The position numbers and the translations under genes are program-made. The notes below the pieces were generated by a model. The model ran no database searches and had not been told where the DNA came from. It saw only the letters and a program-made list of their open reading frames with translations. A stretch of DNA of 50,053 nt from Akkermansia muciniphila (lineage in GTDB: Bacteria > Verrucomicrobiota > Kiritimatiellia > RFP12 > UBA1067), in contig CAMBQV010000002.1 in assembly GCA_945870145.1 (NCBI GenBank), positions 1 to 50,053 on the forward strand, written 5' to 3'. Shown piece after piece: positions 1 through 49,854 of the stretch. The number at the start of each line of letters is the position of its first letter. Within the stretch, counting starts at the first letter, position 1.

Positions 1-160
1 GAGTCAGAAGTCAGGATACAGAATTGATTCTCAATGAGTTACACAAGAAAACGACTCGCCTTTTAGTGATCCCAAAAAATGGAGACCTGAAAAAGTTTAC
101 GAGTGTCGGACATAAACCCTTGCTGTTCAACTCCTGACTCCTGAATTCTCGCTTCTGAAT
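1..160. repeat. Hairpin-armed intergenic element; left arm cut by the window edge
   Basis: Short-period word arrays at 1-30 (gagtcagaagtcaggatacagaattgattc) and 131-160 (ctcctgactcctgaattctcgcttctgaat) are imperfect reverse complements. The 100-nt core carries a 16-codon dead-end ORF on the minus strand (ATG at 111-113, MSDTRKLFQVSIFWDH-stop). Confidence 0.4.
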
Positions 161-361
161 GCCGTGCGATTGTTACGGAGTAAAATCGCACCCAGAACGT
201 CGGAGATTAAAAGGGCGCATTTTCGATTGATTAACCTCTGGCCGCCCACCGACCTTGCGTCGGTGGAGGCAAACGTTGTATGACGGAGGATGCGAGGCTC
301 CTCACTCAACTTTCTTCACCCTCGGCGCAAGGCCGGGGGGATCGGAAGCAGGAGTCACGTG

Positions 362-2959
362 TTATCGCACAAGCTTCTCGAACGGAATATGAGGAGAGAG
401 GCTCAAGAGTGGTTTTACGATCTCACCCTTAGCCTGTTTTTCGGGCTCGGTGTAAGCGCCGTAGAAATTACTATTGCAATCGATCCAAAGCGTGATACGT
501 CTCATCTCTTCCGGCGTCAGCTTCAAGCCGTGATGTTCTTTGACTAAGAGCTGGTACAACTTTGAAATGCGCGCCCCATCCTGAGCTGGCAGTGAATATT
601 CACGTCCGTTGATCTTGATCGCACCATTGCCACCGTTTTTGCACCAAGCCATACCCTGCAATTTTGCGAACGATTCTGACCAGCCATGCGCTCCGAATTT
701 CGTGCCACTAAACCCAGGACCTTTCTTCCCATCAACACCTTTCGTGTGGCAATCAACACATTTTGCATCCAGCACAGGTTGAACCAGCCTTGGGAAGGTC
801 AACGGATAGGACCCTTCCGCCTCTGGCTTGATCTCCGAAGGCGGACGCGACAATGCCATCAGTGCTTTCCCCCCGGTGTTCTTGGGCGAAACATTCTTGG
901 CTTCATGACAGCCCACGCAGGCCATGGTCTCGCCGGGATGCAGATAGGTCTCGGACCTCATACTCATCACGCAGAGACCCTGATCATCAATCGCCTGGAA
1001 GTAGACGGGGATCTCCGTCGGCATCTTGAAATGGACGCTTCCGTCCTCTTCAACAGGGACCGTTCCCAACACGCCACGGCAGAGAGACTGAGCCGCCTTG
1101 CCGATGTTTGGCTCGTTGATCACCAGGTTCGGCTTGGAGAACAGATTGATGATCCTGAGTTCCTTGATCTTCGTCCCTTGCGGAAACGCATATTCACCCT
1201 CGTAGATATTCATGATGGTAACCACGCCCTGGGAGCGATCCTCCCCTGGAACACTGTCTGCCTTCGCTTGTGTCGTCCTGATTGGCAATACTGGCGGACG
1301 TTGACGTGACCTCAGCGGCATCGGATCGAGTGCAGCAATATTGCTGTCACGATAGAGCAACTCCCGATTGCCAAAACTATCAAGCAAGTAAATGCCATAG
1401 TTGTTTTGGCCAGAATCATAAACAGCAAGATAGTAATCTTCGCTCAGCGGCCAGGGCTGTCCATAGAACTCACCTCTCGGAGTATGCTTGCCGCTGCCGG
1501 CGCTATGAGGATGCCCTGGGGCCCTCTCAGATTCCGGAAAAAGGGCTTCAGGTGTTATACGCTTAACCTGAGACATCTCCTTGTCGTCCTTCTCCATGAG
1601 ATCGATCAGCACAAGCGATCCATAATTCTGTCCATGGTGCGGCGCGGCAACGCCCACATATTTATGGGAGTTCGGAATTGCCCTATTCGAAAGCTCCATC
1701 CATGGCCGGAGTTCCCTCTTCTCCGGATAGTTCCCATGGTAACTGCGCGGGTCGCGCCCGTCTGGGAAACATTGCCAAAGGTGATGTGCAATATCAGAGT
1801 CGCGATCAACATAATCCCAGCGCGTGTATATAACCATCCCGTTATTGTCAACACTCGGGTGCCACTCATTGGTATCATGATAACTCAATGGCATAACATC
1901 ACTGCCGTCCGCCATCATGGCATACAGTGTGTAGGTGGAACAGAGCCTCGTGCCGCACCGCTGATTACCACCGATGCGGTCAGAGATGAAAACAATCCTC
2001 CCGCTCGGCAGGAAGCAGGGGTCAAAATCATTGTTACGCCCAAAGGTCAATTGTTTCAGATTGCTTGCCTTACCAGTTTCAGGATTGAAGTCGGCCTTGA
2101 AGACATGAAACACGCGCTCTGGCAACCAGAGATAATGGTTATGGCCGGCCTTCTTTTCAAGAAAATGTTCATTCTTAACTCGCTCAAGCTTGTCCGTCAT
2201 TGAATTCGGATCGAAATCCTTCGGGATCTCCCGTTGCGCTTCTGTAAACGCAAAGAGGATACTCTTGGCATCGAAGTCCAGATCAAGCGAAATGAACGAG
2301 CCCTTGTTATCAATATTCTTATCCTTGAGCGGACCGTTTGCAACAGGAACATCCTTCAGAATGCTAACAGCTTCGGCTTTATCGCTGAATGCGTGATTTA
2401 AAACAAAGACTCCGCCTTGGGGATCCTGGTTGAAGCCTAAATACTGATCCACCATATGATTATCGCCACCGCGCTGCTTATTGTGTTTTACAAACAGTAT
2501 CTTGTCAAAATCCAACAGCGGATTCTGGAACGCAACTTTCCGGCGCAACGCCGTGACCTTATTAAAGAGCGCTTGTTGCTGCTCGATTGTCAAATCCGGC
2601 TTATTTTCTGTACGCAATCCTGCAAGCGCCTGGGCTTCATCTTGCAAGGTCAGGCCACGCTTTTTCTTTTGCAGATCAGCAATCAACGCAGCCGTCCTGC
2701 GCAGGACAATATCGACGGAGGTTTTGTCACTCTCCAGAATCAGCGCCTCCTTCCGGAGACTCTCTTTTGCCAGACGCTCAGTATTCCAGTTTGGACGATC
2801 AAGTATCTGAGCGGCAAGTACACCGAACTCTCCGGGGTAGATGGAGCTCCGGGGGGCTACTATTTTCTTCCCCGCCTTCTTCACATGGGTACTCACCTCC
2901 GCTGCCAATCCTGAAGCGACAGCAAGAAACAACATTGCAGTTACGAGAATCTGTTTCAT
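362..2959 (-). CDS. Secreted TolB/PD40-like beta-propeller protein with two C-terminal CxxCH haem-c motifs (HzsA-related type)
   Basis: Uninterrupted 865-aa ORF. N-terminal signal peptide MKQILVTAMLFLAVASGLAAE. CVGCH and CVDCH motifs lie in the last ~170 aa. Family name assigned by eye only. Confidence 0.65.
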   Translation of the reverse strand: MKQILVTAMLFLAVASGLAAEVSTHVKKAGKKIVAPRSSIYPGEFGVLAAQILDRPNWNTERLAKESLRKEALILESDKTSVDIVLRRTAALIADLQKKKRGLTLQDEAQALAGLRTENKPDLTIEQQQALFNKVTALRRKVAFQNPLLDFDKILFVKHNKQRGGDNHMVDQYLGFNQDPQGGVFVLNHAFSDKAEAVSILKDVPVANGPLKDKNIDNKGSFISLDLDFDAKSILFAFTEAQREIPKDFDPNSMTDKLERVKNEHFLEKKAGHNHYLWLPERVFHVFKADFNPETGKASNLKQLTFGRNNDFDPCFLPSGRIVFISDRIGGNQRCGTRLCSTYTLYAMMADGSDVMPLSYHDTNEWHPSVDNNGMVIYTRWDYVDRDSDIAHHLWQCFPDGRDPRSYHGNYPEKRELRPWMELSNRAIPNSHKYVGVAAPHHGQNYGSLVLIDLMEKDDKEMSQVKRITPEALFPESERAPGHPHSAGSGKHTPRGEFYGQPWPLSEDYYLAVYDSGQNNYGIYLLDSFGNRELLYRDSNIAALDPMPLRSRQRPPVLPIRTTQAKADSVPGEDRSQGVVTIMNIYEGEYAFPQGTKIKELRIINLFSKPNLVINEPNIGKAAQSLCRGVLGTVPVEEDGSVHFKMPTEIPVYFQAIDDQGLCVMSMRSETYLHPGETMACVGCHEAKNVSPKNTGGKALMALSRPPSEIKPEAEGSYPLTFPRLVQPVLDAKCVDCHTKGVDGKKGPGFSGTKFGAHGWSESFAKLQGMAWCKNGGNGAIKINGREYSLPAQDGARISKLYQLLVKEHHGLKLTPEEMRRITLWIDCNSNFYGAYTEPEKQAKGEIVKPLLSLSPHIPFEKLVR

Positions 2960-3121
2960 GAATCCAATCCCCTTTATAAATTCTTTTTATTATGCAGGCT
3001 GGGGCTGAAAATAGTCAATCCTTAAAGATAGCCGATTAAAGGAAACCGTTTAATACACATTTCCCTTGATTCTGAAATCCTTAAGAGCAATAATGAAAAC
3101 GCTCAATAAGGAGAGTCAAAC

Positions 3122-3355
3122 ATGGATGATAAAACATTACAAATTTGCAGAATTTCGGCCTTTCTGGCCTTTGTCTTCTGCTTTACAGCTGGCTTATGGA
3201 TACTCACGAAGACAGGATTAGCCCACGGCAACGATGCGCTGACCACAGGAATCGGACTCTATTTTCTCGGGAAGGCGTTTTTCGTGGGCCCCATGCTCTA
3301 CCTTGCAACAAAAAGACTGAGTCGACCTGACAGAGGGCTTGTGCAGTCGGCATAA
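3122..3355 (+). CDS. Small membrane protein (two predicted TM helices), hypothetical
   Basis: 77-aa ORF with two hydrophobic stretches (ISAFLAFVFCFTAGLWIL, GIGLYFLGKAFFVGPMLYL). It ends 9 nt before uvrB. Confidence 0.4.
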   Translation: MDDKTLQICRISAFLAFVFCFTAGLWILTKTGLAHGNDALTTGIGLYFLGKAFFVGPMLYLATKRLSRPDRGLVQSA

Positions 3356-3364
3356 TCATAAGGC

Positions 3365-5338
3365 ATGAATCACTTAACCCCCTTCACGATTGAGGCTCCC
3401 TTTGAGCCGACTGGCGACCAGCCGCAAGCGATCCAAAAGCTTGTGCAGGGACTCCATGACGGCGCGAAACGTCTCACGCTAGAGGGTGTTACAGGGTCGG
3501 GAAAGACCTTCACCATGGCGAATGTCATTCGCGATTGGGGACGTCCCGCGTTGATCATCTCGCACAACAAGACGCTCGCGGCCCAACTCTTCGCGGAGCT
3601 GAAGGCCTTTTTTCCAAACCATGCGGTTGAATATTTCATCAGTTATTACGACTATTATCAGCCTGAAGCCTACATTCCTCAGACCGACACGTATATTGAA
3701 AAGGACTCCGCAGTCAACGAAGAGATCGAGCGTTATCGTCTCGGCGCGACCAACTCCTTGCTGGGCCGGCGCGATGTGATTATCGTGGCGTCGGTCTCGT
3801 GCATCTATGGCTTAGGCTCGCCGGAAGACTACAAGCAGATGCTCGTCGACATCAAGCCCGGGCAGGTCTGTGTGCGCGACCAGATGCTGGAGGAGCTTGT
3901 CGCCATCCAATACACGCGAAATGATTATGAGACCCAGCCTGGTACCTTCCGCGTGCGGGGCGATACAGTTGACATCTTCCCCTCGTACAATACCTCTGGC
4001 GTTCGTGTCTCTTTCTTCGGAGATGAGATCGAGGAAATCAAGCGCTTTGATCCCATCAGTGGTAAGACAGAAAACCCGCCCCTGCTCCGCGCCGTGATTT
4101 CGCCAGCCAAACATTTTGTGATGCCCAAGGAGAAGATCAACCTTGCGCTGGTACGCATTAGCACAGAACTCGATGAGCGTCTCAAGGAGCTCGAACAGCA
4201 GGGCAAGCTCCTCGAAGCGCAACGCCTCAAGCAACGTACGGAGTTCGACCTTGAGATGTTACGCGAGCTTGGCTATTGCAGCGGTGTTGAAAACTACTCG
4301 CGCCATCTCGCTGGGCGTGCCGCAGGTGAGGCGCCTGCTTGCCTGATCGATTATTTTGACGGCGACTTTTTGACCATCATTGATGAGTCGCATGTCACCC
4401 TCCCTCAGATCAGGGCCATGTACAACGGCGACCAGGCGCGCAAGCAGACCCTCGTGGACTATGGCTTCCGCCTACCCTCCGCAAAAGATAACCGTCCCCT
4501 CAACTTCAATGAGTTTCTAGATAAGGTCGGCCCCATTCTCTTCACCACTGCGACACCGAGTGTCTATGAGAAGCAGGTCAGCGAAGTGACTGTTGCGCAG
4601 GTCATCCGTCCTACAGGACTCCTCGATCCGCCCGTGGAGGTCAGGCCCCTGACAAACCAGATTGACGACCTCATGGAGGAGATCCGTCGGTGCGCCGAAC
4701 AGGGCGACCGCGTCCTCGTGACCACACTCACGAAGCGGACCGCCGAAGACCTGACTGCCTACCTCCATGAAACGGGTATTCGCGTCGAGTATCTGCACAG
4801 CGGAATAGATGCCTTGAAGCGGGTGGATATCCTGGGTCGGTTGCGCAAAGGCACCTTCGACTGCCTCATCGGCATCAACTTGCTCCGCGAGGGGCTCGAC
4901 CTGCCCGAAGTGGCGCTTGTTGCCGTTCTGGATGCGGACAAGGAGGGCTTCCTCCGTTCCGCCACCTCGTTAATACAGACTGCTGGACGTACCGCACGTC
5001 ATGTCAATGGACGTGTCATTCTGTATGCCGACAGAGTCACCGAGGCCATGCGGCAAATGATCGAGATCACCCAGACGCGCCGAGCCAAGCAGGAGGCTTA
5101 TAATACCGAGCACAATATTACACCGCAAAGCGTCAAACGCGCCATCCACGAGTCGCTGAAACTCTATGAAGAGGCAGAGGAGATTGAAGCCAGCATGGTT
5201 GCCGAGTCTCAGGAAGCCTACAATGTGCAGACTGTCATTGCAGATTTGGAACGCGAAATGCTCGAGGCAGCACATGATCTCGAATTCGAACGCGCAGCGG
5301 CCTTGCGTGACGAGATTAAGCTCTTGAAAAGCCAATAG
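3365..5338 (+). CDS. uvrB: Excinuclease ABC subunit B
   Basis: 657 aa. Walker A GVTGSGKT, a helicase motif set, and a C-terminal UVR domain (EAAHDLEFERAAALRDEI). Confidence 0.97.
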   Translation: MNHLTPFTIEAPFEPTGDQPQAIQKLVQGLHDGAKRLTLEGVTGSGKTFTMANVIRDWGRPALIISHNKTLAAQLFAELKAFFPNHAVEYFISYYDYYQPEAYIPQTDTYIEKDSAVNEEIERYRLGATNSLLGRRDVIIVASVSCIYGLGSPEDYKQMLVDIKPGQVCVRDQMLEELVAIQYTRNDYETQPGTFRVRGDTVDIFPSYNTSGVRVSFFGDEIEEIKRFDPISGKTENPPLLRAVISPAKHFVMPKEKINLALVRISTELDERLKELEQQGKLLEAQRLKQRTEFDLEMLRELGYCSGVENYSRHLAGRAAGEAPACLIDYFDGDFLTIIDESHVTLPQIRAMYNGDQARKQTLVDYGFRLPSAKDNRPLNFNEFLDKVGPILFTTATPSVYEKQVSEVTVAQVIRPTGLLDPPVEVRPLTNQIDDLMEEIRRCAEQGDRVLVTTLTKRTAEDLTAYLHETGIRVEYLHSGIDALKRVDILGRLRKGTFDCLIGINLLREGLDLPEVALVAVLDADKEGFLRSATSLIQTAGRTARHVNGRVILYADRVTEAMRQMIEITQTRRAKQEAYNTEHNITPQSVKRAIHESLKLYEEAEEIEASMVAESQEAYNVQTVIADLEREMLEAAHDLEFERAAALRDEIKLLKSQ

Positions 5339-5345
5339 CTTTTTA

Positions 5346-5429
5346 GCATCCGAAAAATGCGAAAAGAGCGAAGTGAGCTAGCGCCTTATACATCATTCCA
5401 ATATTCCACAATTCCAGCATTCCAGTCAG
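5346..5429. repeat. Two adjacent short-period word arrays (gcgaa-type and attcca-type) directly 3' of the uvrB stop
   Basis: catccgaaaaatgcgaaaagagcgaagtgagc at 5346-5378 and catcattccaatattccacaattccagcattccagtcag at 5391-5429. gcgaa-type words recur at 8531-8553, 43957-43967 (reverse) and 49873-49893. Confidence 0.3.
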
Positions 5430-5434
5430 CGGCC

Positions 5435-8484: not shown

Positions 8485-8490
8485 TCCAAC

Positions 8491-8567
8491 AATAACGCAA
8501 TAACGCTCGTTACGTATTCGTAACCATTCGGCGAATGCCGAAAGCGAAGCGGTAATAACGCAATTCT
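8491..8567. repeat. Word-array element (aataacgcaat-type plus gcgaa-type) abutting the stop codon of the 8568 gene
   Basis: aataacgcaataacgc at 8491-8506, hairpin gttacgtattcgtaac, cattcggcgaatg, then gaaagcgaagcggtaataacgcaattct ending at 8567. The stop codon (cta, i.e. TAG on the minus strand) is at 8568-8570. Confidence 0.5.
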
Positions 8568-10670: not shown

Positions 10671-10801
10671 CGTGTGGTACCACACGAGGTAGGAGGTGTC
10701 AGGGAGGAGGGAGGAGATAAAACTCCTGCTTCCTACCTCCTACTTCCTACCTCCTACCTTCTTTGGGTGCTGATTCAACAAAGTTGAATCGTACCCAAAG
10801 A
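10671..10801 (+). other. Three stacked hairpins immediately 3' of the AraC-like gene
   Basis: Perfect palindrome cgtgtggtaccacacg at 10671-10686. Purine-word arm 10687-10716 pairs with pyrimidine-word arm 10723-10759 across the loop ataaaa. A nested hairpin at 10760-10801 pairs tctttgggt with acccaaaga and gattcaac with gttgaatc. Confidence 0.6.
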
Positions 10802-10842: not shown

Positions 10843-12033
10843 ATGAATTCAAGACGTGAAGCTATCTTCGTTCTCACCCGCTGGTTGGAAACCCGCGACT
10901 TCCCAGACCGCATGCTCAGTGACCACCCTGACCATGCCTTTATTCTGGACATGGTCTATACCACGATCCGCCGTTACCGCTCCCTCACCTGGGTGCTTGA
11001 ACAGGTCGTCAAAAAGATGCCCAAGGGTGAAACCGAGGCGGCCCTCCTCCTGGGCGCAGCGCAAGTCCTCTATATGCCGGATGTCGCGGATTACGCGGCA
11101 GTCAATGAGACTGTCGAAGCCGCCAAGCTCACCTCCAAGCAAGCCGCCGGCCTTGTCAACGGTGTGCTTCGCAACATCTTACGCAACATTGAGGCGACCC
11201 GCAAAGCCCTCTCCGAGCAATCCATCGGCATCCGCATGTCCCATCCCGATGCCTTGATCACCCGCTGGCAGGAGCGTTTTGAAGAGCCTGAAGTCATCGC
11301 CTTGTGCGAGTGGAACAATACCCCTCCAGCGACCTATCTCGCGTGGGCTCCCGGCGCGGAAAAACCCTTTACCCCCTTACCCCATGGTACACGTATCGAA
11401 GCGGTGCCGGGTTATGCAGAGGGTCGTTTCATCGTGCAGGACCCTGCAACAGACGCGGCGATCAGCCTCATGAACATCCAGCCCAACCTGCGCATCCTTG
11501 ATGCCTGCGCCGCACCGGGAGGCAAGAGCATTCAGATCGCGTGGCGTATGCAGGGAGGAACCCTGGTTGCCATGGACATGTACGAGGACCGCCTCCAAAC
11601 CTTACGGGCGAATCTTGCGCGGACCAAACTGCCGAACGTCATCGTGGCTCAAGGTGACTTGGTCCAAGATGCTGCGCGGATACAAGTTGAGCACGGACTC
11701 TTTGATCGCATCCTGCTGGATGTCCCCTGTTCGAACACCGGCGTCTTGCGTCGCCGTCCGGATGCCCGCTGGCGCTGGACCACCAAACGCATGAAGAAAC
11801 TCTGCGAGACGCAAGCGAAACTTTTAGAGGCCGCCTTGTCCCTGCTCGCCCTGGGCGGACGTATCGTCTACTCGACGTGCAGCCTGGAGCCCGAAGAGAA
11901 TCGCAAGCAGATCGCCCTCTTGCGAAAAGCACATCCGGAGGTCGAATGTGTCGGAGTCGAAGAACGCATTCCCACGCGAAGCCAGACCGACGGCGCCTTT
12001 GCCTGCGCCCTCGAACGTGTCGCACAACCTTAA
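10843..12033 (+). CDS. rsmB: 16S rRNA (cytosine-C5) methyltransferase RsmB/Sun
   Basis: 396 aa. NusB-like N-terminus, SAM motif DACAAPGGKS, catalytic DVPCS and TCS motifs. Confidence 0.85.
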   Translation: MNSRREAIFVLTRWLETRDFPDRMLSDHPDHAFILDMVYTTIRRYRSLTWVLEQVVKKMPKGETEAALLLGAAQVLYMPDVADYAAVNETVEAAKLTSKQAAGLVNGVLRNILRNIEATRKALSEQSIGIRMSHPDALITRWQERFEEPEVIALCEWNNTPPATYLAWAPGAEKPFTPLPHGTRIEAVPGYAEGRFIVQDPATDAAISLMNIQPNLRILDACAAPGGKSIQIAWRMQGGTLVAMDMYEDRLQTLRANLARTKLPNVIVAQGDLVQDAARIQVEHGLFDRILLDVPCSNTGVLRRRPDARWRWTTKRMKKLCETQAKLLEAALSLLALGGRIVYSTCSLEPEENRKQIALLRKAHPEVECVGVEERIPTRSQTDGAFACALERVAQP

Positions 12034-12953
12034 GGGAACAGCACATCCAAAAAGCGTTCGGCGACAACTGCTCCCTCGGGCGGAGAGATCGCAAGATCCG
12101 GACTGACCTCGATCACGGTGGTGCGCTTTGAAACCGGATCAATCAGAAAATCAATACCGACCAAGGGTAGCTTGAGCGCTTTTGCAATACGCTGCGACAG
12201 TTGGAGCGCGCGGCGCGGAACGCGGTCAGTGACCACTTCCACCGTGCCCCCAGTGTGATAGTTGTTTGTCAGCCGTACTTGCACACATTCACCTAGCCGA
12301 GGAACATCCTCTGGTTTACGTTTCAGCTCGGCTAGATTACGCCGAGTCTCCGCATTCCAAGGGATCTGATTACTGGGATCGCTCTTCCGACGTTCCACAT
12401 TGCGCCGAGAGATCAGCTGGCGTATGGAGTGGCGTCCATCACCCGTCACAGAAGCCGGTGAACGCTGGATCGCGGCAGCCAGTTCGCCTCCGGTCAGGAT
12501 CACACGAAGATCCTCCCCGGGCATCGTCTCCTCCAAAACCACATCTGCCTCGTAGCGACGGGCAAACTGCACCGCGCGTTTCAGTTCATCCGCTGTCCGC
12601 ACACCCATGGAGACTCCGCGTCCGCCCCATTGCATACAAGGCTTCACAACGATGGGCGCATACTGCTTTAAAAAGGCGACTGCTAACTCCGGGCAAGAGT
12701 CCTCGTAGGGAATCTGGGCTGGCACTGGAATTCGTTGGGACACAAGCCAGGCATGGCAGGCGCGCTTGTTGTTAACCAGATGATAGGTCGCCGCACCGAC
12801 AAGGTCGGTCAGAGCATTGAAACAGCGAATGGTCTTACCCTTCTGCGTGAGATCAAAAATAGGCAGGTCTGGATCAGGGTTGATGATCTTGACCTTGATG
12901 CCGCGACGCTTGGCTGCATCTGTTAAGGTTGTGGTATAGGGTGTCAGGTTCAT
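12030..12953 (-). CDS. ATP-grasp peptide ligase, cyanophycin-synthetase/RimK-like
   Basis: 307 aa. VVKPCMQWGGRGVSMG, the GDGRHSIRQLISRRN insertion, NYHTGGT and GIDFLID motifs are typical of CphA N-domain-like ATP-grasp enzymes. The start overlaps the alr stop (ATGA at 12950-12953). Confidence 0.7.
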   Translation of the reverse strand: MNLTPYTTTLTDAAKRRGIKVKIINPDPDLPIFDLTQKGKTIRCFNALTDLVGAATYHLVNNKRACHAWLVSQRIPVPAQIPYEDSCPELAVAFLKQYAPIVVKPCMQWGGRGVSMGVRTADELKRAVQFARRYEADVVLEETMPGEDLRVILTGGELAAAIQRSPASVTGDGRHSIRQLISRRNVERRKSDPSNQIPWNAETRRNLAELKRKPEDVPRLGECVQVRLTNNYHTGGTVEVVTDRVPRRALQLSQRIAKALKLPLVGIDFLIDPVSKRTTVIEVSPDLAISPPEGAVVAERFLDVLFP

Positions 12954-14074
12954 GCGTTTTGATAGCGGCGTTCCACGCGGTTTCCAAACGAGCAGATAAT
13001 CTCATACGGATGGGTTCCCTTGAGGCGAGCCCACTCCTCGACATGAATAGCTTGTTCGCCCTCGCCTCCAAGACAGATGACCTCATCGCCGATCTGCGCG
13101 GCGGCGAGTTTTTTAAGGGAGACGACGGTATAGTCCATAGAGATTCGTCCCAGGACAGGACAGGGCACGCCTCTAATCAGCATATAGCCCTTGTTTGAGA
13201 GCGCCAGCGGAAGGCCGTCCGCATAGCCAGCGGAAATGACACCCACACGCGTATCCCGTTTCAAGACACACGTATGACCGTAACCAATACCTGTGCCGGC
13301 CGGCAAATCACGGATCGCTGTCAGACGCGTCTTGAGCGTCAGGATCGGATCCAGACGCAAAGCCCGATGTCCGGCTGTGTCAAACGAGCCATGCAGGTTG
13401 ATCCCGGTGCGGATCACATTAAAAGGGGCTTGATAGGCGCACGGAAAATTGTTGATGGCATCGCTGTTCGCAATATGCCGCTTTGAAAAGGTGATGCCAG
13501 ACTGGGCCAGAAGATCCAAGAGCTTGCAAAAATCATGGACTTGGCTTTGGGTCAGAAGAGAGTCAGTATCATACGCTGAAGGGAAGTGCGAGAAGATTCC
13601 CTGACAATCGAGACCGGGCAGGGAGTGGGCCTTCCGAATCACAGACTCGGCATCGCGCATCAGGATGCCGAGACGTCCCATGCCGGTATCAATCTTAAAA
13701 TGGACGACACCGCGTTTTCCCTGCTTCACCGCCTCCTCGCTGATTCGCTTGGCGGATTCCAGATCTGTCACCGGTAAAACCACGTCCGACTCAACCATCG
13801 GTGCGATCTCCTCCGGCAGGATGCTGCTCAAAATCTGGACAGTCCCCTTCAGTGGCAGCAACTGGATCGCCTCATAAGGTTCAGCGACACCAAACTGTGT
13901 CACGCCCGCATCGCTGAGCGCACATGCGATCGGCAACACGCCAAGGCCATACGCATTGGCCTTCAAAACAGCCAAAACCTCCGCAGGCGCAACCGCCTCA
14001 CGAATCTTGCGATAGTTTGAAATCAAACGGCCGAGATCAATCTCCAGCCACACACGCCTAGGTATCGTAGTCAT
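12950..14074 (-). CDS. alr: Alanine racemase
   Basis: PLP-lysine motif VLKANAYGLG and a C-terminal beta domain. The ORF extends to 14116, but MTTIPRRVWLEIDL (ATG 14072-14074) fits the family N-terminus. Confidence 0.9.
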   Translation of the reverse strand: MTTIPRRVWLEIDLGRLISNYRKIREAVAPAEVLAVLKANAYGLGVLPIACALSDAGVTQFGVAEPYEAIQLLPLKGTVQILSSILPEEIAPMVESDVVLPVTDLESAKRISEEAVKQGKRGVVHFKIDTGMGRLGILMRDAESVIRKAHSLPGLDCQGIFSHFPSAYDTDSLLTQSQVHDFCKLLDLLAQSGITFSKRHIANSDAINNFPCAYQAPFNVIRTGINLHGSFDTAGHRALRLDPILTLKTRLTAIRDLPAGTGIGYGHTCVLKRDTRVGVISAGYADGLPLALSNKGYMLIRGVPCPVLGRISMDYTVVSLKKLAAAQIGDEVICLGGEGEQAIHVEEWARLKGTHPYEIICSFGNRVERRYQNA

Positions 14075-14093
14075 AAACAGGATAAGTATTGTA

Positions 14094-14194
14094 TTTCGGA
14101 ACCACAAAATCCACAAAAATCACAAACTTTATTTGTGGACCTCATAATTAGGGGTTCCAAAGTTTAGAAACGTGCCATGTCGCTTCTTCCTGTG
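14094..14194 (-). pseudogene. Remnant of a second GxxExxY cassette (arm plus last 19 codons)
   Basis: 101-bp unit, ~85% identical to 14195-14295. It reads KKRHGTFLNFGTPNYEVHK-stop, against KKRHGMLLNFGAPKYEVHKYIL-stop in the intact gene. The first 33 nt (tttcggaaccacaaaatccacaaaaatcacaaa) are identical in both units. Confidence 0.7.
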
Positions 14195-14630
14195 TTTCGG
14201 AACCACAAAATCCACAAAAATCACAAAATGTATTTATGAACCTCATATTTTGGGGCTCCAAAGTTCAGTAACATGCCATGCCGCTTCTTCGTGGCCTTCA
14301 AATAATGTAAAACCTGAGCCTCGTTTTCGCCCGACAGCGCTTTTGCAGCCTTTAGTTCAACAATAAACAAGTCATTAACCATTAAGTCGGCAACATAGTC
14401 GCCAACAACAAAATCATCCTCATCATAGACTTTAATTGCCACCTGCTGTTCAACAGAGCAACCAGCCTTTCTCAAACGATGTGCTAATGAATTTTCGTAA
14501 ACCTTCTCAAGAAATCCATTACCAAAATACTTATGAATCTCAAAACCTGTCTGTCTAATCACATCTGCCAATGCGTAAACATCATTCATTTTTTAACCCC
14601 TTTTGTGCCTTTTGTGGATTTTGTGGTTCC
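14195..14630 (-). mobile_element. GxxExxY gene cassette bounded by inverted word-array arms
   Basis: Arm ggaaccacaaaatccacaaaaatcacaaa at 14199-14227 pairs with ttttgtgccttttgtggattttgtggttcc at 14601-14630. The outer 21 nt are perfect reverse complements. The gene's stop codon lies inside one arm, and its ATG is 11 nt from the other. Confidence 0.5.
14221..14589 (-). CDS. GxxExxY family protein (PD-(D/E)xK-like)
   Basis: 122 aa. GNGFLEKVYENSL is the eponymous GxxExxY motif. IVELKA and the C-terminal LLNFG motif are typical of the family. Confidence 0.85.
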   Translation of the reverse strand: MNDVYALADVIRQTGFEIHKYFGNGFLEKVYENSLAHRLRKAGCSVEQQVAIKVYDEDDFVVGDYVADLMVNDLFIVELKAAKALSGENEAQVLHYLKATKKRHGMLLNFGAPKYEVHKYIL

Positions 14631-14635
14631 TCCCC

Positions 14636-17186: not shown

Positions 17187-17376
17187 TTTTCATGACGCGC
17201 TGTGTTATTGAGCCAACCTCTCTCAGAGAAGACCACCTCCCCCCAACAAAATGATATAAGAATAGAGGATGGTACAAGTGCAGTCAAGAACCTAACTATT
17301 TGGATAACGCGGCTATTCAATGCGATGGAAGCCACCAGCTGTGCATACAACAAGCTCCAAACGGGCAGTCGCTCGG

Positions 17377-17446
17377 CGGGGATACCCTTGCCCTCTGCGC
17401 GTGCTTATTCGCGCGCGTTTATTCGAACCGGGGGTTCTCATCCCGT
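17377..17446. repeat. Repeat B copy 1
   Basis: cggggatacccttgccctctgcgcgtgcttattcg...gggttctcatcccgt. It is the same unit as 17597-17649 with a 14-nt internal duplication. Confidence 0.7.
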
Positions 17447-17506
17447 AAAAAAAGAAAGCCCAAAGTGATTTTTCACTTTGAGCTTTTCATTTTTCCACTT
17501 AAAAAG

Positions 17507-17525
17507 TGGCGGGGACGACGGGATT
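17507..17525 (-). repeat. Partial copy of the tRNA-Asp 3' end (att-like direct repeat)
   Basis: tggcggggacgacgggatt equals the last 19 nt (including CCA) of the tRNA at 17715-17733. With flanks, the identity is 22 nt (17504-17525 vs 17712-17733). Confidence 0.8.
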
Positions 17526-17596
17526 GGCGCTCTTTCGCTGTCGCTCATCGCTCTCGTCCGGATTACCGGCCGAGCGTTAAGCAGGCGTTCGGGCTA

Positions 17597-17649
17597 CGGG
17601 GATATCCTTGCCCTCTGCGCATGCTTATTCGAACGGGTTCTCATCCCGT
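17597..17649. repeat. Repeat B copy 2
   Basis: cggggatatccttgccctctgcgcatgcttattcgaacgggttctcatcccgt. Confidence 0.7.
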
Positions 17650-17655
17650 CGGAAA

Positions 17656-17689
17656 TAAAAAAGCTGCAAACTCCTTCGAGTTTACAGCT
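17656..17689 (-). terminator. Rho-independent terminator after tRNA-Asp (minus strand)
   Basis: 12-bp stem, 17662-17673 paired with 17678-17689, loop cttc. The single non-Watson-Crick position is a G-U pair only in the minus-strand RNA. A U-run follows on the minus strand. Confidence 0.6.
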
Positions 17690-17714
17690 TTTTGCCTCTA
17701 TCTTAAAAAGAAAG

Positions 17715-17791
17715 TGGCGGGGACGACGGGATTCGAACCCGCGACCACCGGATCGACAGTCCGGTGCGCTAACCAATTGCGCCACGTCCCC
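17715..17791 (-). tRNA. tRNA-Asp (GTC), CCA encoded
   Basis: Cloverleaf parsed by hand: GGGGACG-TG-GCGC-AATTGGTTA-GCGC-A-CCGGA-CTGTCGA-TCCGG-TGGTC-GCGGG-TTCGAAT-CCCGT-CGTCCCC-G-CCA, 77 nt. Confidence 0.95.
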
Positions 17792-17875
17792 GCAAAAGTT
17801 CGTGTACTTTAGCAGATTAACGCTTCACTCTGCAATAACAAAAATAAAAAAATTCGCCGAACTGTTCAGTCACCG

Positions 17876-19836: not shown

Positions 19837-19849
19837 TTTTTTATCCTGC

Positions 19850-33200: not shown

Positions 33201-33665
33201 GGTTATCTGAACAACCCGGAGAAGACAGCCGAGGTTTTGCACGACGGCTGGTATAACACAGGCGACATCGCTCGTATTGACGAAGAGGGCTTCCTTTTCA
33301 TTACCGACCGCCTCTCGCGTTTTAGTAAAATCGGTGGCGAAATGGTCCCCCATGGGGCCGTCGAAGAGGTGCTTCAACACGCCAGCGGCACAACAGAACC
33401 CTGCGTCGCCGTCATCGGGGTGCCAGACGAGAAGGCCGGTGAACGTCTCGTCGTCTGCCTCACGCCACAGGCGGGCGATATTGAGAAACTCTATCAGGCC
33501 CTCAAGGAGAGCAAACTTCCCAACCTCTGGATCCCGAGCCGTACCGACTTCATTTCCATACCAGAAATTCCTTTACTGGGCACAGGCAAGATTGATCTGC
33601 GCTCCGTACGCGAAGGGATAACGCAAGCCCAGCCGCCCAGAGGGGGCAGTGGCAGTAGGCAGTAG
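30261..33665 (+). CDS. LplT-like MFS transporter / PlsC acyltransferase / acyl-ACP synthetase (Aas) triple fusion
   Basis: 1134 aa. About 12 TM helices at the N-terminus, an acyltransferase HX4D-type motif (NHTAYGD), and AMP-binding motifs (SSGSTGIPKG, YGSTE, TGD, GKID). GTG at 30261 or ATG at 30270. The last 8 codons and the stop lie inside a word array. Confidence 0.85.
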   Translation: MSSMTKQFKWLNLSQAIGALIDNTFKMLTVIYLVNALGKDLSQTLSLASALLVIPFILFSNWAGALTDRYSKRNLFVIIKWGELLLLLLAFPALLSGQAWCMLALLFLLAAQSAFFGPVKRGIVPELVSGDALAQANGQMTGASYLAIILGLFLPSLAITILHLSYSMVLLLCVAFSICGLLCAYRLPPTPAANRPSQCSLWLFPDALRTLRFLTPHVWLKRALWGSVAFSGVSALFQQNLVITAQDVFALSVEASGYLFLLVALGIMLGAWVSGRLSPHTIETGLIPIGALGLALSLFGLGITRHPLMLGFWLVLLGITSGACIVPLTAYIQSKSPAHNRGEIFGAIEFWSFLAMVLASGLFYLLTGILHVNAQACMLITGGIGAGAAAWTLYRLPHHTFRFLVSRLTRLLYRVEIHGLENLPREGGALLVANHTAYGDVTILQSATQRTIRYVMSREIFSSWAWCQPFFRLSSVIQIHTKDGPRALVHALTHAREALQQGELVGIFPEGRLTPNGTIQSFHKGFEKIVKGTDAPIIPVHLDNLWGSIFSYRYGKPGFRWPKTFPLRVTLRIGKPLKSDATAEEARQAVIELGVQTALEHAARPGNTLGQRLLQQARRHWGRLIAQDTLGQSLTYGKLLSGALALNARLKTRLAPAQNIGVLFPPSVGALLVNVALALQGKTVVNLNWTVSQEAFVSAVKQSGLRQIITSRRFLSNLTLPETSAELLCLEDLLQTLTLKEKVSAFLQARFASAQALCNGSFPKPSDPACIIFSSGSTGIPKGVVLSHANLLSNVDALETVVPVTPRDTLCASLPFFHCFGFLGTLWWPLLIGIKTVFHANPLQVSQILHLLREAKATTLLTTPTLLQAYLRKGTKEDFATLRHLFTGGEKLPVALAEACEKAIGLRPLEGYGSTELSPVVAMGLSDRTFDALTTKGNKPGSTGRPLPNIALRTVDPETGAPLPAYETGLLLVKGPNVMTGYLNNPEKTAEVLHDGWYNTGDIARIDEEGFLFITDRLSRFSKIGGEMVPHGAVEEVLQHASGTTEPCVAVIGVPDEKAGERLVVCLTPQAGDIEKLYQALKESKLPNLWIPSRTDFISIPEIPLLGTGKIDLRSVREGITQAQPPRGGSGSRQ

Positions 33666-33685
33666 CAGTTGGCAGTGGCAGCGAG
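33645..33685. repeat. ggcagt-type word array overlapping the stop codon of the Aas fusion
   Basis: ggcagtggcagtaggcagtagcagttggcagtggcagcgag. The 18-mer at 33659-33676 is identical to 19536-19553. Confidence 0.6.
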
Positions 33686-33777
33686 ATATTAATCTTCGGT
33701 CCTTTTATCCTTTCGTCCTTGAGTCAATATCCCAAGTCGCATGTCCAATGTCCCAAGTCCTCAACAAAGTAATCCTC

Positions 33778-39103: not shown

Positions 39104-39111
39104 GGTTACGT

Positions 39112-41762: not shown

Positions 41763-41973
41763 TTTACAGGAGGCTATTCGTACGGAGGAGAGCGCCTCGG
41801 CCATTTTCCTGACGCATCTCCAAGCGCTGACCGAGCGCATGGGCATCGATAAGGCCCTTGCCGAGGAGGCTCGCCAGGTCTTAGAGCATCTGATCACGGA
41901 AAACAAGCGACACCAAGCTATTTTGGAAGCTTTACAAAAACAGCTCAAAGGAGATGAACGCCATGATTGGTAA
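41737..41973 (+). CDS. Small helical-hairpin protein, possible ferritin-like half
   Basis: 78 aa. Overlaps the 3' end of the GH26-like gene by 26 nt and the next ORF by 20 nt. Confidence 0.4.
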   Translation: MKKSDLLNSLQEAIRTEESASAIFLTHLQALTERMGIDKALAEEARQVLEHLITENKRHQAILEALQKQLKGDERHDW

Positions 41974-42160
41974 ACAACAATGGAATGAGATGGCGCTTCA
42001 GGTTCACGAACTTGAGAAGCGGATGCAAGTGACCTACGCGGATCTGGCTCAAAAAGTTTCTGAGCCCGGTGTCAAGGCGATCTTTACCAATCTGGTTCAA
42101 GATGAACAGAACCATGCCGACGCGATTGACGCCATCGCACGCAAGATCATGAAATCTTAA
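41954..42160 (+). CDS. Small ferritin/rubrerythrin-like half-domain protein
   Basis: 68 aa. HELEKRMQVTYADLA ... LVQDEQNHADAI matches an E...ExxH two-helix unit. Alternative ATG at 41963. Confidence 0.45.
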   Translation: MNAMIGKQQWNEMALQVHELEKRMQVTYADLAQKVSEPGVKAIFTNLVQDEQNHADAIDAIARKIMKS

Positions 42161-42249
42161 CGTTCTTTTTTGCTTTTGCAATCAGACACGCTTTTGCGCT
42201 ATACTCTTGACGCTCATCAATACCCTCCCAGGAGGTTGCTTTACAAGGA

Positions 42250-42735
42250 GTGATTATGGATCCGCTATTAGAGATGTTAAAAAAGAATGCGCGCGAGTCA
42301 GATGCCGTGCTGGCAAAAGAGCTCGGCACAACTGAAGCCGATGTCAAGGCACGTATTGCAGCGTATGAAAAAGACGGCGTTCTCCGTGGCTTCCGTGCAC
42401 TCATCAATCCAGCGCGCATCGATGACACCACCGTGCACGCGGTCATCGAGCTGCGCATCCGCCCGGAACGCGAAGGCGGTTTCGACCGTTTGGCCTCGCG
42501 TATCAGCCAATGCCCACAAGTGGAATCCATGTTTCTGATGTCCGGCGGCTTTGACCTGATGCTCTTTGTGAAGGGGAAAAATCTTCAAGAAGTCGCTAAT
42601 TTTGTGAGCGTCCATCTCGCGACGATTGACGGAGTCCTCTCGACTGCAACCCATTTCATGCTCAAGACCTATAAGGATCAAGGTATCCTGATGGAAGGTG
42701 AACACTATGATGACCGACTCCAAGTCAGTCCCTGA
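42250..42735 (+). CDS. Lrp/AsnC-family transcriptional regulator
   Basis: 161 aa. HTH LAKELGTTEADVKARI and a RAM domain. Confidence 0.85.
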   Translation: MIMDPLLEMLKKNARESDAVLAKELGTTEADVKARIAAYEKDGVLRGFRALINPARIDDTTVHAVIELRIRPEREGGFDRLASRISQCPQVESMFLMSGGFDLMLFVKGKNLQEVANFVSVHLATIDGVLSTATHFMLKTYKDQGILMEGEHYDDRLQVSP

Positions 42736-43888: not shown

Positions 43889-43918
43889 AATTGCACACAG
43901 CGAATACGCTTGTCCCAA

Positions 43919-44048
43919 ATTGCCTTATTGCCTGATTGCCTTATTGCGTTATTAGAGCTTCGCTTCCAAAAATCGTCAAATACTTTCGTCCTTGACCACA
44001 AGAGAATGTGATTTCTCAAATAATAAGGCAATAAGGCAATAACGCAAT
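43919..44048. repeat. Hairpin-armed element (attgcc/aataaggcaat word arms) with a degenerate core
   Basis: Left arm 43919-43953, right arm 44019-44048. attgccttattgcc pairs with ggcaataaggcaat as a perfect 14-bp stem. The element ends 4 nt before the purD stop codon. Confidence 0.6.
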
Positions 44049-44052
44049 TCTC

Positions 44053-48315: not shown

Positions 48316-48357
48316 CTCGACTCCCAGTTTCTTCGCTCAATAAGACAACTCTTCTCT

Positions 48358-48390
48358 TAATAAGGCAATAACGCAATAAGGCAATTCTCT
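48358..48390. repeat. aataaggcaat-type word array abutting a stop codon
   Basis: taataaggcaataacgcaataaggcaattctct ends at 48390. The stop codon of the 157-aa gene is at 48391-48393. Confidence 0.55.
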
Positions 48391-48864: not shown

Positions 48865-48878
48865 TTTATTCCTTCCAC

Positions 48879-49058
48879 TGGCGTCCCATAGGTCCGCCGA
48901 GGCTGTAGCATTTTAGGCTGTAGGCTATTAGGTAAAATGGCGGAAAATGGTTTGTTTAATATCATTAATGCCATTGGTTGAAAACAAACAGAAACACATG
49001 TACTTCCTAACAGTCTACAGCCTAAAAACCTAAAAACCTGCGTCCTATGGGACGCTAA
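48879..49058. mobile_element. 180-bp MITE-like hairpin-armed element with a 14-bp target-site duplication
   Basis: Direct repeat tttattccttccac at 48865-48878 and 49059-49072. Terminal inverted repeats tggcgtcccatagg... and ...cctatgggacgctaa, plus inner ctgtagg/cctacag word arms. The core holds the 14-codon ORF MAENGLFNIINAIG-stop (48937-48981). Confidence 0.7.
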
Positions 49059-49059
49059 T

Positions 49060-49854
49060 TTATTCCTTCCACAAAAAACCCGTTAACGGGGATGAAGCAT
49101 CAGCCATGGCGCGAGGCGCACGTGGCCCTGCTTGGCGAGCAAGTTCAGCAGCCTCAACCGCTTTTGAAAAGGCGAGAGCCATCTTCACAGGATCCGCCGC
49201 AGCAGCGATCGCTGTGTTCACTAAAACGCAATCAGCCCCCATCTCAATGGCCTCCGCCACATGAGAGGGAAGTCCGAGTCCTGCGTCTACAACAACAGGC
49301 ACATTCGCATTTGCGATGATGATCTCAATCATATCCCGCGTACGGAGTCCCCTGTTCGTCCCAATCGGAGCACCCAAGGGCATCACGGCAACAACACCGA
49401 CCTCCTCAAGTCGCTTAGCCAGCACAGGGTCGGCATTCATGTAGGGAAGCACTTTGAAGCCCTCTTTCGCCAAGACCTCGGAGGCCTTGAGTGTCTCAAT
49501 CGGATCAGGGAGTAAATGATGAAGATTAGGGGTCAGTTCAAGCTTAATCCAGTCAAAGCCTCCGGCGGCACGCGCCAGACGCGCAATACGAATCGCCTCC
49601 TCTGCCGTGCGTGCCCCGCTCGTGTTCGGCACGATCACGACCTTATTCGGATCGAGTTTGGAGATAAGCGGATCGCCTTCGGGATTTTTATCCAAATCAA
49701 CACGACGAAGCGCCACCGTCACCAATTCACAGCCTGAGACCTCGATTGCCTGGCGCATCAGCTCGTGCGAACCAAATTTTCCGGTTCCAATAAAGAGTCG
49801 CGACCGGAATTCGCGACCTGCAATGATAAGTGGTTTCATGAAGGGCAATATCAT
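49060..49854 (-). CDS. thiG: Thiazole synthase
   Basis: 264 aa. LFIGTGKF, the catalytic-lysine region WIKLE, and VMPLGAPIG. Alternative start MKPLII at 49839. Confidence 0.93.

Follow-up and report, generated by a model that had tools for sequence, protein, structure and literature searches.

Small inserted elements with word-array arms fill intergenic spacers of a Kiritimatiellia genome and resemble 23S rRNA intervening sequences

The intergenic spacers of this Kiritimatiellia genome consist largely of small, fast-changing inserted elements, the full-length copies of which carry a small gene. We analysed a stretch of 50,053 nucleotides (the window) and consider it probable that its word-array sites derive from small inserted cassettes with the architecture of 23S rRNA intervening sequences (IVSs), some as copies and others as gene-less derivatives or one-armed remnants. 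The full unit is about 0.45–0.5 kb long and comprises an arm, a ribosome-binding site, a small open reading frame (ORF) and the same arm inverted. Each arm is 25–36 nt in length and consists of two to five tandem 6–9-nt words, and the ORF encodes either a GxxExxY PD-(D/E)XK nuclease (in the window) or a four-helix-bundle "IVS protein" (in related genomes). The sites in the window are as follows.

1–160, no strand assigned: hairpin with inverted GTCAGAA/GTCAGGA word arms (1–30, 130–158) around a core of ~100 nt; z −3.7 (− strand).
5339–5434, + strand: whole uvrB–exoD spacer, with the end module TTTTTAGCATCCGAA plus GCGAAAA words (5340–5372) and an ATTCCA array (5394–5425); not a hairpin.
8485–8567, + strand: two direct AATAACGC arrays around two mini-hairpins plus GCGAAGCGG.
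10671–10797, + strand: 127-nt insertion with three hairpins, starting directly after the AraC stop codon; z −9.1.
14090–14635, − strand: GxxExxY cassette with CCACAAAAT word arms (14601–14630, 14199–14228) and a duplicated arm (14098–14126).
19536–19566, + strand: solo GCAGT(A/T)G array between a surface-protein gene and tRNA-Pro.
33645–33765, + strand: GGCAGT array, then TCCTTT and TCCCAAG arrays; not a hairpin.
43918–44049, no strand assigned: gene-less hairpin with AATAAGGC/AATAACGC word arms (43918–43953, 44021–44049; inverted repeats I7 and I10) around a 68-nt core; z −6.
48316–48390, − strand: spacer between the 157-aa gene and a methyltransferase gene, with a solo AATAAGGC array (48359–48386).
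48866–49072, no strand assigned: 181-nt insertion (48879–49059) with its flanking duplications; z −8.4.
49880–49905, − strand: GCGAAAAATGCGAAAA words plus CTACTGCCC (reverse complement GGGCAGTAG), upstream of thiG.

Reading of the sequence and Tandem Repeats Finder located all of the word arrays cited in a preliminary description of this DNA at or near the positions where it had placed them. The non-coding 8.8% of the window held 18 of the 26 arrays of period 5–12, against 0.33 expected from shuffled non-coding sequence, and a 19th array spanned the stop codon at 33663–33665. AATAASGCAAT, allowing one mismatch, matched 14 times (1.47 expected from shuffles), with 12 of the matches falling within four intergenic spacers. 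An exact 18-mer proposed as a link was confirmed at 19536 and 33659 and was also present in two further genomes (L026 and L061), and the gaagcgaagc-NN-taataacgcaat module was found at 8540–8564 and, reversed, at 43943–43966 (inverted repeat I2). The 13-mer at 33710 and 43983 was likewise exact, but this link was not significant alone (three matches with two or fewer mismatches vs. 1.5 expected), and the 13-mer had no match in other genomes.

These sites had been described as one family of hairpins, usually with inverted arms. Instead, we found several arm families together with many one-armed or solo arrays, and true hairpins at 5 of about 11 sites only (1–160, 10671–10797, 14098–14630, 43918–44049, and 48879–49059). 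Fold z-scores ranged from −3.7 to −9 at 1–160, 10671–10800, 43889–44052, and 48865–49059. At 5339–5434, 19520–19600, 33640–33777, 48316–48390, and 49855–49910, in contrast, they were about −1.2 or weaker on both strands, indicating that these sites are unstructured; half of the sites are solo arrays of this kind. Where the neighbouring genes have the same orientation (1–160, 10671–10800, and 48865–49059), the sense strand folded better at two of the three (1–160 and 10671–10800). No element matched a canonical terminator or an Rfam family.

All eight of the proposed contacts with stop codons were real (0–5 nt away or overlapping). However, placement was not specific to stops, as the elements occupy whole spacers and adjoin start codons about equally often: across five genomes, ends of AATAAGGC-type arrays came within 10 nt of a stop codon 8 times and of a start codon 6 times, as judged from crude ORF calls. 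Insertion into stop/start junctions, and not a bias towards the sequence 3′ of stops, explains the contact with stop codons. The units insert in the few nucleotides between a stop and the next start and sometimes replace the last codons, giving a new stop; the GGCAGT array, for example, provides the TAG stop (33663–33665) of the MFS/acyltransferase/AMP-ligase fusion gene.

The gene-bearing copy in the window shows the complete design. As proposed, an intact GxxExxY gene (TIGR04256, 117 bits; 14221–14589) is enclosed by the 14098–14630 element, with its stop codon inside an arm, and the arms are 93% complementary (inverted repeats I3 and I4). What had been taken for a stub is a 101-nt tandem duplication (14090–14291; direct repeat D1) that repeats one arm and the 3′ end of the gene. 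L001 and L002 have retained the cassette, which lies there, as in the window, between the ABC permease gene and alr. GxxExxY genes with inverted arms of CACAAA words were also found between the HepT and DUF218 genes of OW818680.1 (arms of 31 nt, 94% complementary) and, in a Verrucomicrobia MAG, between purL and purQ. With the window, these make three unrelated loci in three genomes and support the portability of the gene-bearing copy. In a Bacteroidales homologue of GxxExxY, the arms consist of CGAATT words, which in L111 make up a hairpin without a gene. The dN/dS of the gene was 0.10. In the comparison with L002 its synonymous sites were saturated (pS 0.75), yet the arm differed at just 3 of 32 nt.

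The second cargo connects the gene-less hairpins to the same design. Four-helix-bundle genes (TIGR02436) have AATAACGC-type words on their flanks in L022 and CCTAAAA/CCTACAG words in L076; these are the arm words of the gene-less hairpins at 43918–44049 and 48879–49059, respectively. The arms of the former, which sits between the converging aminotransferase and purD genes, are 88–93% identical to one arm of the L022 cassette. Different arm vocabularies accompany different cargo lineages. Loss of the cargo leaves hairpins with cores of roughly 10–100 nt, and the cores of the gene-less hairpins contained no detectable remnant of a cargo ORF; further breakdown would yield the solo arrays, which we regard as remnants of cassettes.

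Insertion was clearest at thiG. The 48879–49059 element has the inverted ends GGCGTCCCATAGGTCCGCC and AGCGTCCCATAGGACGC (48880–48898, 49040–49056), with CTGTAGG/CCTAAAAA arrays subterminal inside them, and is flanked by a 13-bp target duplication, TTATTCCTTCCAC (48866–48878 and 49060–49072), that copies the thiG stop codon and the ribosome-binding site of the next gene. The junction between thiG and the 157-aa gene is 1–3 nt in L113, L114, L115, and L117 (the empty site), compared with 181 nt plus the 13-bp duplication in the window and strain L109. A clear target duplication was seen at this element only and not at 10671, 14098, or 43918, and the GGCGTCCCATAGG ends did not recur anywhere in the sequences compared.

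The elements are insertions, and they also exchange short modules, so that even 95%-identical strains have different spacers. Strain L110, related to the window at that level, does not have the 127-nt element behind the AraC gene, and its AraC protein has a different C-terminus. It has a different core at 8485–8567 between retained flanking words and no homology to the 1–160 region, the whole of which is absent; the element there is truncated by the window edge. Between uvrB and exoD, three unrelated spacers occur: one of 96 nt in the window, a 255-nt mosaic in L111, and 2 kb of toxin–antitoxin genes in L110. At the junction corresponding to 48316–48390, L113 has a spacer of 8 nt, L117 one of 65 nt containing the same words, and L115 one of 60 nt containing ATTCCA words; in L119 the genes overlap. 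Homology with strain L109 stops exactly at 49880–49905. The 8485–8567 site, with mini-hairpins GTTACG-TATT-CGTAAC and TTCGGC-GAAT-GCCGAA, is a variant of a 51-nt module located between AATAAGGC words in other genomes. The hairpins at 10671–10797 are, in order, CGTGTGG-TA-CCACACG, one with GGTAGGAGG/CCTACCTCC word arms, and TTTGGGT...ACCCAAA; the third, together with CTCC words, is also found upstream of thiG in L117. The TTTTTAGCATCCGAA end module occurred 18 times in the compared sequences, mostly in other genomes, and the TCCCAAG words of 33645–33765 recur in L083, L075, and L110. Together, these results support the view of the preliminary description that the elements are cassette-like insertions with sequence-diverse arms and common modules. 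Of the three outcomes that it had named as speaking against it (arms that do not recur outside this stretch, no enrichment next to stop codons, and no empty sites in relatives), none was observed.

The preliminary description had recognised no described class; relatives do exist among 23S rRNA IVSs (PMC4990558) and cyanobacterial STRR hairpins (PMC2670836). In Coxiella, the terminal inverted repeats of the IVS form a 28-bp stem within which RNase III cuts, and the IVS contains three to four tandem GACAGAT heptamers and a four-helix-bundle ORF; 23S rRNA IVSs are regarded as selfish and possibly transposon-derived, and gene-less or decaying versions exist (PMC4990558). Like these S23p/four-helix-bundle IVSs of Coxiella, Leptospira, and Salmonella, the present elements are small insertions with terminal inverted repeats (a ~28-bp stem), tandem heptamer words at the 5′ end and a small ORF exactly within the stem, and four-helix-bundle genes with word-array arms occur in L022 and L076. 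Unlike IVSs, which lie in helix 25 or 45 of 23S rRNA, they lie between protein-coding genes and carry a GxxExxY nuclease in the window; their arm vocabularies are numerous, solo arrays are frequent, modules are shuffled, and RNase III excision is a prediction. STRRs share short tandem word arrays (7-bp in STRR) that are intergenic, including inside operons, and hairpin-capable (PMC2670836). They differ in phylum, and the arrays described here have periods of 6–9 nt, just 2–5 copies and positions as arms around cargo genes. To our knowledge, neither presence/absence nor target duplication, both seen here, has been reported for STRRs. Like the REP/BIME and REPIN sequences of proteobacteria, the elements are extragenic mosaics of short motifs at gene ends and include hairpin doublets; REPINs have been described as miniature mobile DNA (PMC3116915). 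However, they have no GTAG-type REP consensus, and no RAYT gene was seen. Nested very small modules, such as the 51-nt module, recall the very small dispersed repeats of Nostoc reportedly described by Elhai and colleagues in 2008. In contrast to both groups, the building blocks here are tandem words, not single palindromes.

Foldback elements and MITEs also have inverted ends of short tandem sub-repeats, empty sites in relatives and gene-less derivatives, and the 13-bp duplication at thiG fits them. An unlikely alternative is that ordinary elements of this type are mobilised in trans by a transposase whose gene lies elsewhere in the genome, with the arrays as subterminal transposase-binding sites, the GxxExxY and four-helix-bundle genes as passengers or separate insertions, and RNA structure incidental. 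The inverted ends, duplication and empty sites of 48879–49059 agree with this, as do the inverted pairs of the TTTTTAGCATCCGAA module and subterminal words in L075 and the co-variation of arms between cassettes, as in transposon ends. However, no transposase partner is known, none was present among the scanned window proteins, and most copies lack a duplication. Moreover, a 122-aa nuclease or a four-helix-bundle protein fills the loop exactly, the arms being bounded by the ribosome-binding site and stop codon of the cargo ORF in three genomes and two cargo families, which is not expected of random passengers; rRNA IVSs have the same design and no known transposase (PMC4990558).

It is less probable still that the arrays are host regulatory or spacer RNAs, selected intercistronic modules like REP/BIME or STRR that act as A-rich leaders without structure, as hairpins that stabilise or process mRNA, or as devices for translational coupling, and spread by recombination and gene conversion rather than selfish insertion. 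For STRR hairpins, a role in transcript stabilisation or translational coupling has been proposed (PMC2670836). The AATAAGGC arrays lack structure and are often found in sense orientation 2–35 nt upstream of start codons, and arms are conserved although synonymous sites are saturated. Two genomes that are 80% identical both keep an A-word spacer of 37 nt at an orthologous operon junction, which could reflect host function rather than decay. Nevertheless, close relatives lack the elements and have tight 1–8-nt junctions, the same junction holds different words in different lineages, the arrays run in both directions relative to transcription (by our count, ~17 sense and 6 antisense), and the target duplication indicates insertion; the lack of terminator or Rfam matches also counts against a host role. 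Neutral microsatellites arising by local replication slippage, with likeness between sites coincidental, are very improbable. Pure long 8-mer arrays of the same word do occur singly in unrelated bacteria (L029, L033, and L040), and we estimate that chance alone would give ~280 matches to the scan pattern in 596 Gb. This explanation is already contradicted by identical composite modules that recur with the same imperfections across loci and genomes, several genomes with 4–18 loci each, inverted pairs that bracket ORFs precisely, and an element with a target duplication and empty sites in relatives.

For the IVS-like cassettes that we favour, transcription of the operon would allow the arms to pair into a ~30-bp stem that loops out the insert. 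By analogy with rRNA IVSs, this stem would probably be cut by RNase III, and excision of the insert would let the flanking genes remain expressed. Insertion may involve a transposition-like step; one copy has a target duplication. Candidates for the mobilising enzyme are the cargo nuclease, working on its own arms, and a factor whose gene lies outside the cassette. None of 106 AATAAGGC loci had a GxxExxY gene beside the array, so action of the nuclease on its own arms is supported for the CACAAA and CGAATT arm types only. A structure model of the 122-aa GxxExxY protein (pLDDT 94.5) has a PD-(D/E)XK core with conserved D68, E78, and K80, and among solved folds it is closest to Cas4, MGME1, and lambda exonuclease.

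The window has a G+C content of ~52% and carries ordinary housekeeping and sugar-metabolism genes, and the best named relatives of its UvrB (72-83% identity) are Kiritimatiellia MAGs. An exact-sequence look-up of the purD product gave no record, and the searches with GxxExxY and UvrB yielded no 100%-identical match; the close relatives of the window genome that were found are the strains represented by loci L109 (99.2%) and L110 (95%). Non-coding sequence makes up about 8.8% of the window, which contains no rRNA gene; the element sites all lie between protein-coding or tRNA genes. The assigned genes and structured intergenic sites were as follows.

3365-5338, uvrB
further genes assigned: exoD, Gfo/Idh/MocA oxidoreductase, AraC regulator, rsmB, alr
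further genes assigned: ABC permease, MFS/acyltransferase/AMP-ligase fusion, purD, thiG
1-160, hairpin
10671-10797, hairpin
14090-14635, minus strand, cassette with a GxxExxY gene (14221-14589); arms 14199-14228 and 14601-14630, 30 nt, 93% complementary
43918-44049, gene-less hairpin; arms 43918-43945 and 44022-44049, 28 nt, 93% complementary
48879-49059, gene-less hairpin; 181-nt thiG element between thiG and the gene for a 157-aa product

The preliminary description, which reported arrays of short imperfect words forming a family of hairpin cassettes directly 3' of stop codons, proved largely correct. Every cited word array was found, and the arrays were not random: AATAASGCAAT occurred 14 times (1.47 expected), and 18 of the 26 arrays of period 5-12 fell in the non-coding 8.8%, with a 19th straddling a stop codon, compared with 0.33 in shuffled non-coding sequence. 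Of the links said to join separate sites, both the 18-mer and the shared module gaagcgaagc/taataacgcaat were verified, whereas the 13-mer was an exact match that by itself was without significance; the claimed stop-codon contacts were real in every case. Hairpins were present at five sites only, the others being single arrays, neither strand of which folded better than shuffled controls. The reading as cassettes was right in spirit, but the elements neither form a single family nor are specific to stop codons. The hairpins at 1-160, 10671-10797, 43918-44049, and 48879-49059 gave fold z-scores of -3.7 to -9, the fifth hairpin site being the arm pair around the GxxExxY gene, and the stems are predicted to be strong.

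Comparison with related genomes revealed that the elements are insertions and that the spacers turn over fast. In relatives in which the product of the gene beside thiG was 94%, 82%, or 78% identical, the gap between the two genes was 1-3 nt (TTGTGGAAGGAATAAtATG); the same junction in the window and in the 99.2%-identical strain contained the 181-nt insert. The element ends in inverted repeats (GGCGTCCCATAGG...) and is flanked by a 13-bp direct duplication (GTGGAAGGAATAA) that leaves the stop codon of thiG and the ribosome-binding site of the next gene intact. No further copy of its ends was found among the collected loci, and the sites at 10671, 14098, and 43918 showed no recognisable target duplication. 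A duplication at the 157-aa/methyltransferase junction was not claimed, because the AGAGAA by the stop codon belongs to the array's own conserved end (GCAATTCTCT). Upstream of thiG, homology to L109 stopped exactly at an array edge, and the next junction downstream measured 8, 60 (ATTCCA words), 65 (AATAAGGC words), or 75 nt, or was an overlap, depending on the lineage.

Insertion and loss take place at other stop/start junctions as well. The 127-nt triple hairpin that follows AraC in the window was absent from L110, where AraC also ended differently; at the site corresponding to 8485-8567, L110 kept the flanking words around a different core. The uvrB-exoD spacer was 96 nt in the window, ~2 kb of toxin-antitoxin genes in L110, and a 255-nt mosaic in a 92% relative. 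The L110 island (11978-13998) encodes a MazE-type antitoxin, a ParE-type toxin, and other small ORFs, separated by word-array hairpins, one of them made of GACTCAAAGACTGAAAGAC and its inverse (~12555-12650). L110 and the window further differ in the final 16 nt of uvrB.

We then examined the genes enclosed by arms. The GxxExxY gene of the window (TIGR04256) lies exactly between its arms, with its stop codon within one of them, and the cassette is retained in two relatives; the dN/dS of the gene is 0.10. The arms are under constraint; in this cassette, an arm differed at 3 of 32 nt where synonymous sites were saturated. Cargo and arm move as a unit. At a different locus, OW818680.1 carries a 56%-identical GxxExxY gene with a CACAAAGAA-word arm pair (31 nt, 94% complementary), and in a Verrucomicrobia MAG a 59%-identical gene flanked by CACAAA-word arms lies between purL and purQ. 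The arms of a Bacteroidales homologue consist of CGAATT words, which also build a gene-less hairpin in L111, a locus of another genome. Among the 106 scan loci, no GxxExxY gene lay next to AATAAGGC arrays, save one Bacteroidales homologue with other arms.

Other cargo was found as well. TIGR02436 four-helix-bundle genes had AATAACGC-type words on both sides in a Rikenellaceae MAG (L022) and CCTAAAA/CCTACAG words in ELA499 (L076); the arms of the window's two gene-less hairpins, at 43918-44049 and 48879-49059, are built from these words. No remnant of a cargo gene was seen in the cores of these two hairpins. In OW818680.1, CTTTAGAAC words bracket an AbiEii gene. In the same genome, an accessory island (L121, 250-3400) holds AbiEii, MNT/HepT, and GxxExxY genes, each separated by CTTTAGAAC arrays, together with a 201-nt sequence that is highly structured and directly repeated (2373-2573 and 2650-2850, 94% identical); the layout of the island resembles a cassette array, with no integrase in view.

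The GxxExxY family is listed as of unknown function (PMC3424549), and our literature searches for GxxExxY/PF13366 turned up only that description. A structural model of the protein (pLDDT 94.5) had Cas4, MGME1, and lambda exonuclease as its nearest solved folds, and on this model it is a predicted minimal PD-(D/E)XK nuclease with conserved catalytic residues. A sequence search against solved structures gave no match, and defence-system and phage libraries gave weak Cas4-like matches at most.

To follow the vocabulary in other genomes, we searched 185,579 species genomes for adjacent pairs of AATAAGGC-type words, a pattern for which we estimated ~280 chance matches. Many lone matches in unrelated bacteria were plain microsatellites. 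Genomes with multiple loci were MAG ELA499 (18 loci), OW818680.1 (8), a MAG labelled Akkermansia (8), and MAG ELA183 (4), and in these the arrays formed mosaics with further modules common to the window:

TTTTTAGCATCCGAA plus NCGAA words, window 5340-5372
GGCAGTAGCAGTTGGCAGT
GTCCCAAG words
ATTCCA words; CCTAAAA/CCTACAG words
51-nt unit inserted between AATAAGGC words, window variant 8506-8552

At gathering thresholds, Rfam identified three tRNAs in the window and nothing else, and no Rfam family matched the arrays or modules there or, at E up to 1, in eight related loci; full-text literature searches for the word strings gave no match. A conserved short ORF starting from ATGACGCGAA in the TTTTTAGCATCCGAA module was rejected because several copies, including those of the window's relatives, are without ATG. 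A comparison of array density between Kiritimatiellia-type and other loci was discarded because every locus had been chosen for having an array.

We compared the elements with known systems and judged the rRNA intervening sequence (IVS) to be the closest kind, of which they would be a variant. The Coxiella 23S rRNA IVS, described as a selfish element with a suggested transposon origin, has a 28-bp terminal inverted-repeat stem cut by RNase III; GACAGAT heptamers stand in three or four tandem copies at the 5' end, and the loop holds an ORF for a four-helix-bundle protein (PMC4990558). The architecture is alike: inverted repeats able to form a stem of the IVS size (~25-30 bp) surround inserts in the window (30- and 28-nt arms, z -6 to -9). 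However, IVSs occupy helix 25/45 of the 23S rRNA gene, whereas the elements here sit in operon junctions outside rRNA and have other cargo; GxxExxY replaces the S23p/four-helix-bundle ORF in the window, although such ORFs (TIGR02436) do occur in L022 and L076. Cyanobacterial STRR heptamer arrays, which form intergenic hairpins of unknown function (PMC2670836), are likewise tandem and intergenic, but they belong to heterocystous cyanobacteria rather than Kiritimatiellia, and the periods here are 6-9 nt. BIME and REPIN elements are extragenic mosaics, as are those here (PMC3116915); this class, defined by an imperfect palindrome of 20-40 nt with a conserved 5' tetranucleotide and by association with a RAYT gene, was rejected because the units here are tandem words, the sole REP-like palindrome being GCGTCCCATAGGACGC at one element's end, and no Y1-transposase was found among the scanned window proteins. 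Integrons were also rejected: the arms are without the RYYYAAC ... GTTRRRY attC cores, the GTTAYAG...GGTAAC module of related genomes has the opposite core order, and the sites are scattered among housekeeping genes rather than contiguous beside intI/attI. Intrinsic terminators (a G+C-rich stem and then a T run) were dismissed since terminator-like sites occurred at chance level (23 versus 20.8 and 18 versus 19.4); the scan picked no word-array arm, only the small palindrome at one thiG-element end, and its counts of sigma-70 promoters were also at chance level.

These comparisons suggest a model in which the stem would form in polycistronic RNA, where RNase III may process it or where it may at least sequester the insert, so that the operon would tolerate the insertion. 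Mobility could come from the cargo nuclease or from a trans-acting factor, and gene-less hairpins and solo arrays would be decay products. One of the two main rivals holds that the elements are MITEs mobilised in trans, with the genes as passengers. At 48879-49059, sub-repeated inverted ends occur together with a target duplication (13 bp), as in foldback transposons and MITEs, and presence/absence polymorphism at orthologous sites was observed; no transposase was found among the scanned window proteins. The other main rival, that the arrays are spacers or regulatory RNAs selected by the host, stays alive because two genomes that are 80% identical have an A-word spacer of equal length (37 nt) at an orthologous junction.

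A broader extension of the mobile-element reading, which we consider rather unlikely, is that GxxExxY (PDDEXK_3) and four-helix-bundle "IVS proteins" serve as cargo, and possibly in mobility or maintenance, for a single widespread class of ~0.5-kb autonomous elements, bounded by word-array stems and located at operon stop/start junctions across Kiritimatiellota, Verrucomicrobiota, and Bacteroidota. In that case the 23S rRNA IVSs would simply be those copies that had inserted into rRNA, the arrays would be recognition sites of the cargo proteins, and the RNA stem would protect the operon from harm by the insertion.

More generally, the cassette interpretation would place two very common families, GxxExxY/PDDEXK_3 and TIGR02436, in a genomic context and offer a testable role for them, tie the long-unexplained rRNA IVSs to a broader kind of element, and provide a reason why intergenic spacers here turn over far faster than the surrounding genes. 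For annotation, the elements account for odd gene ends (array-supplied stop codons, variable UvrB and AraC C-termini) and for spurious small ORFs, and the stems are candidates for natural sites of RNase III processing within operons.

Several further observations were made in the other genomes. A recurrent ~55-nt module, GTTAYAG...GGGAATRAAC...GGTAAC followed by a T run, often lies just upstream of the TTTTTAGCATCCGAA module (ELA499 L103, 2440-2500 and 2690-2758; also L089, L020, and L066); it had no Rfam match and may be a terminator-like hairpin. Word arrays are not all intergenic, as a ATTGCCTTATTGCC array within coding sequence in L069 (947-981, OW818680.1) and L092 (4433-4475, Spirochaetaceae) codes for a signal peptide's hydrophobic core (..IALLPYCLIALL..). 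Spacers of similar style with other words, in which different short arrays stand side by side or inverted arms abut gene ends, occur in another Kiritimatiellota MAG (L112, 7402-7535 and 15029-15135) and, in other phyla, in L038 (Calditrichia), L025 (Bacteroidales UBA3724), and L024 (Hydrogenedentota); the phenomenon may therefore extend far beyond this lineage. The "uncultured Akkermansia sp." MAG CAYWNP01 has ~80% nucleotide identity to OW818680.1 over syntenic genes (L049 versus L091) and shares intergenic vocabulary with the window, so its taxonomic label needs checking.

Within the window, two tRNA-Asp(GTC) genes (99% identical) lie on opposite strands at 17715-17791 (-) and 19850-19926 (+). 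A 26-nt piece of the tRNA-Asp 3' end is found at 17500-17525, and a 61-nt sequence is directly repeated (17359-17419 and 17579-17639, 79% identical), with a terminator-like hairpin after both copies. The region (17187-17875 and 19760-19926) looks like integration scars at tRNA-Asp or a duplicated small-RNA unit. In a single 988-aa ORF at 26620-29586 (-), residues 194-353 form a sigma-54-interaction AAA+ domain and residues 539-981 a GH32 glycoside hydrolase; this ORF is either an unusual fusion or two genes joined through an assembly or frame artefact. Finally, 41763-42146 and 42531-42697, where no ORF was called, have coding-like composition and neither arrays nor structure, and are probably missed or frameshifted genes around a 127-aa ORF (42147-42530).
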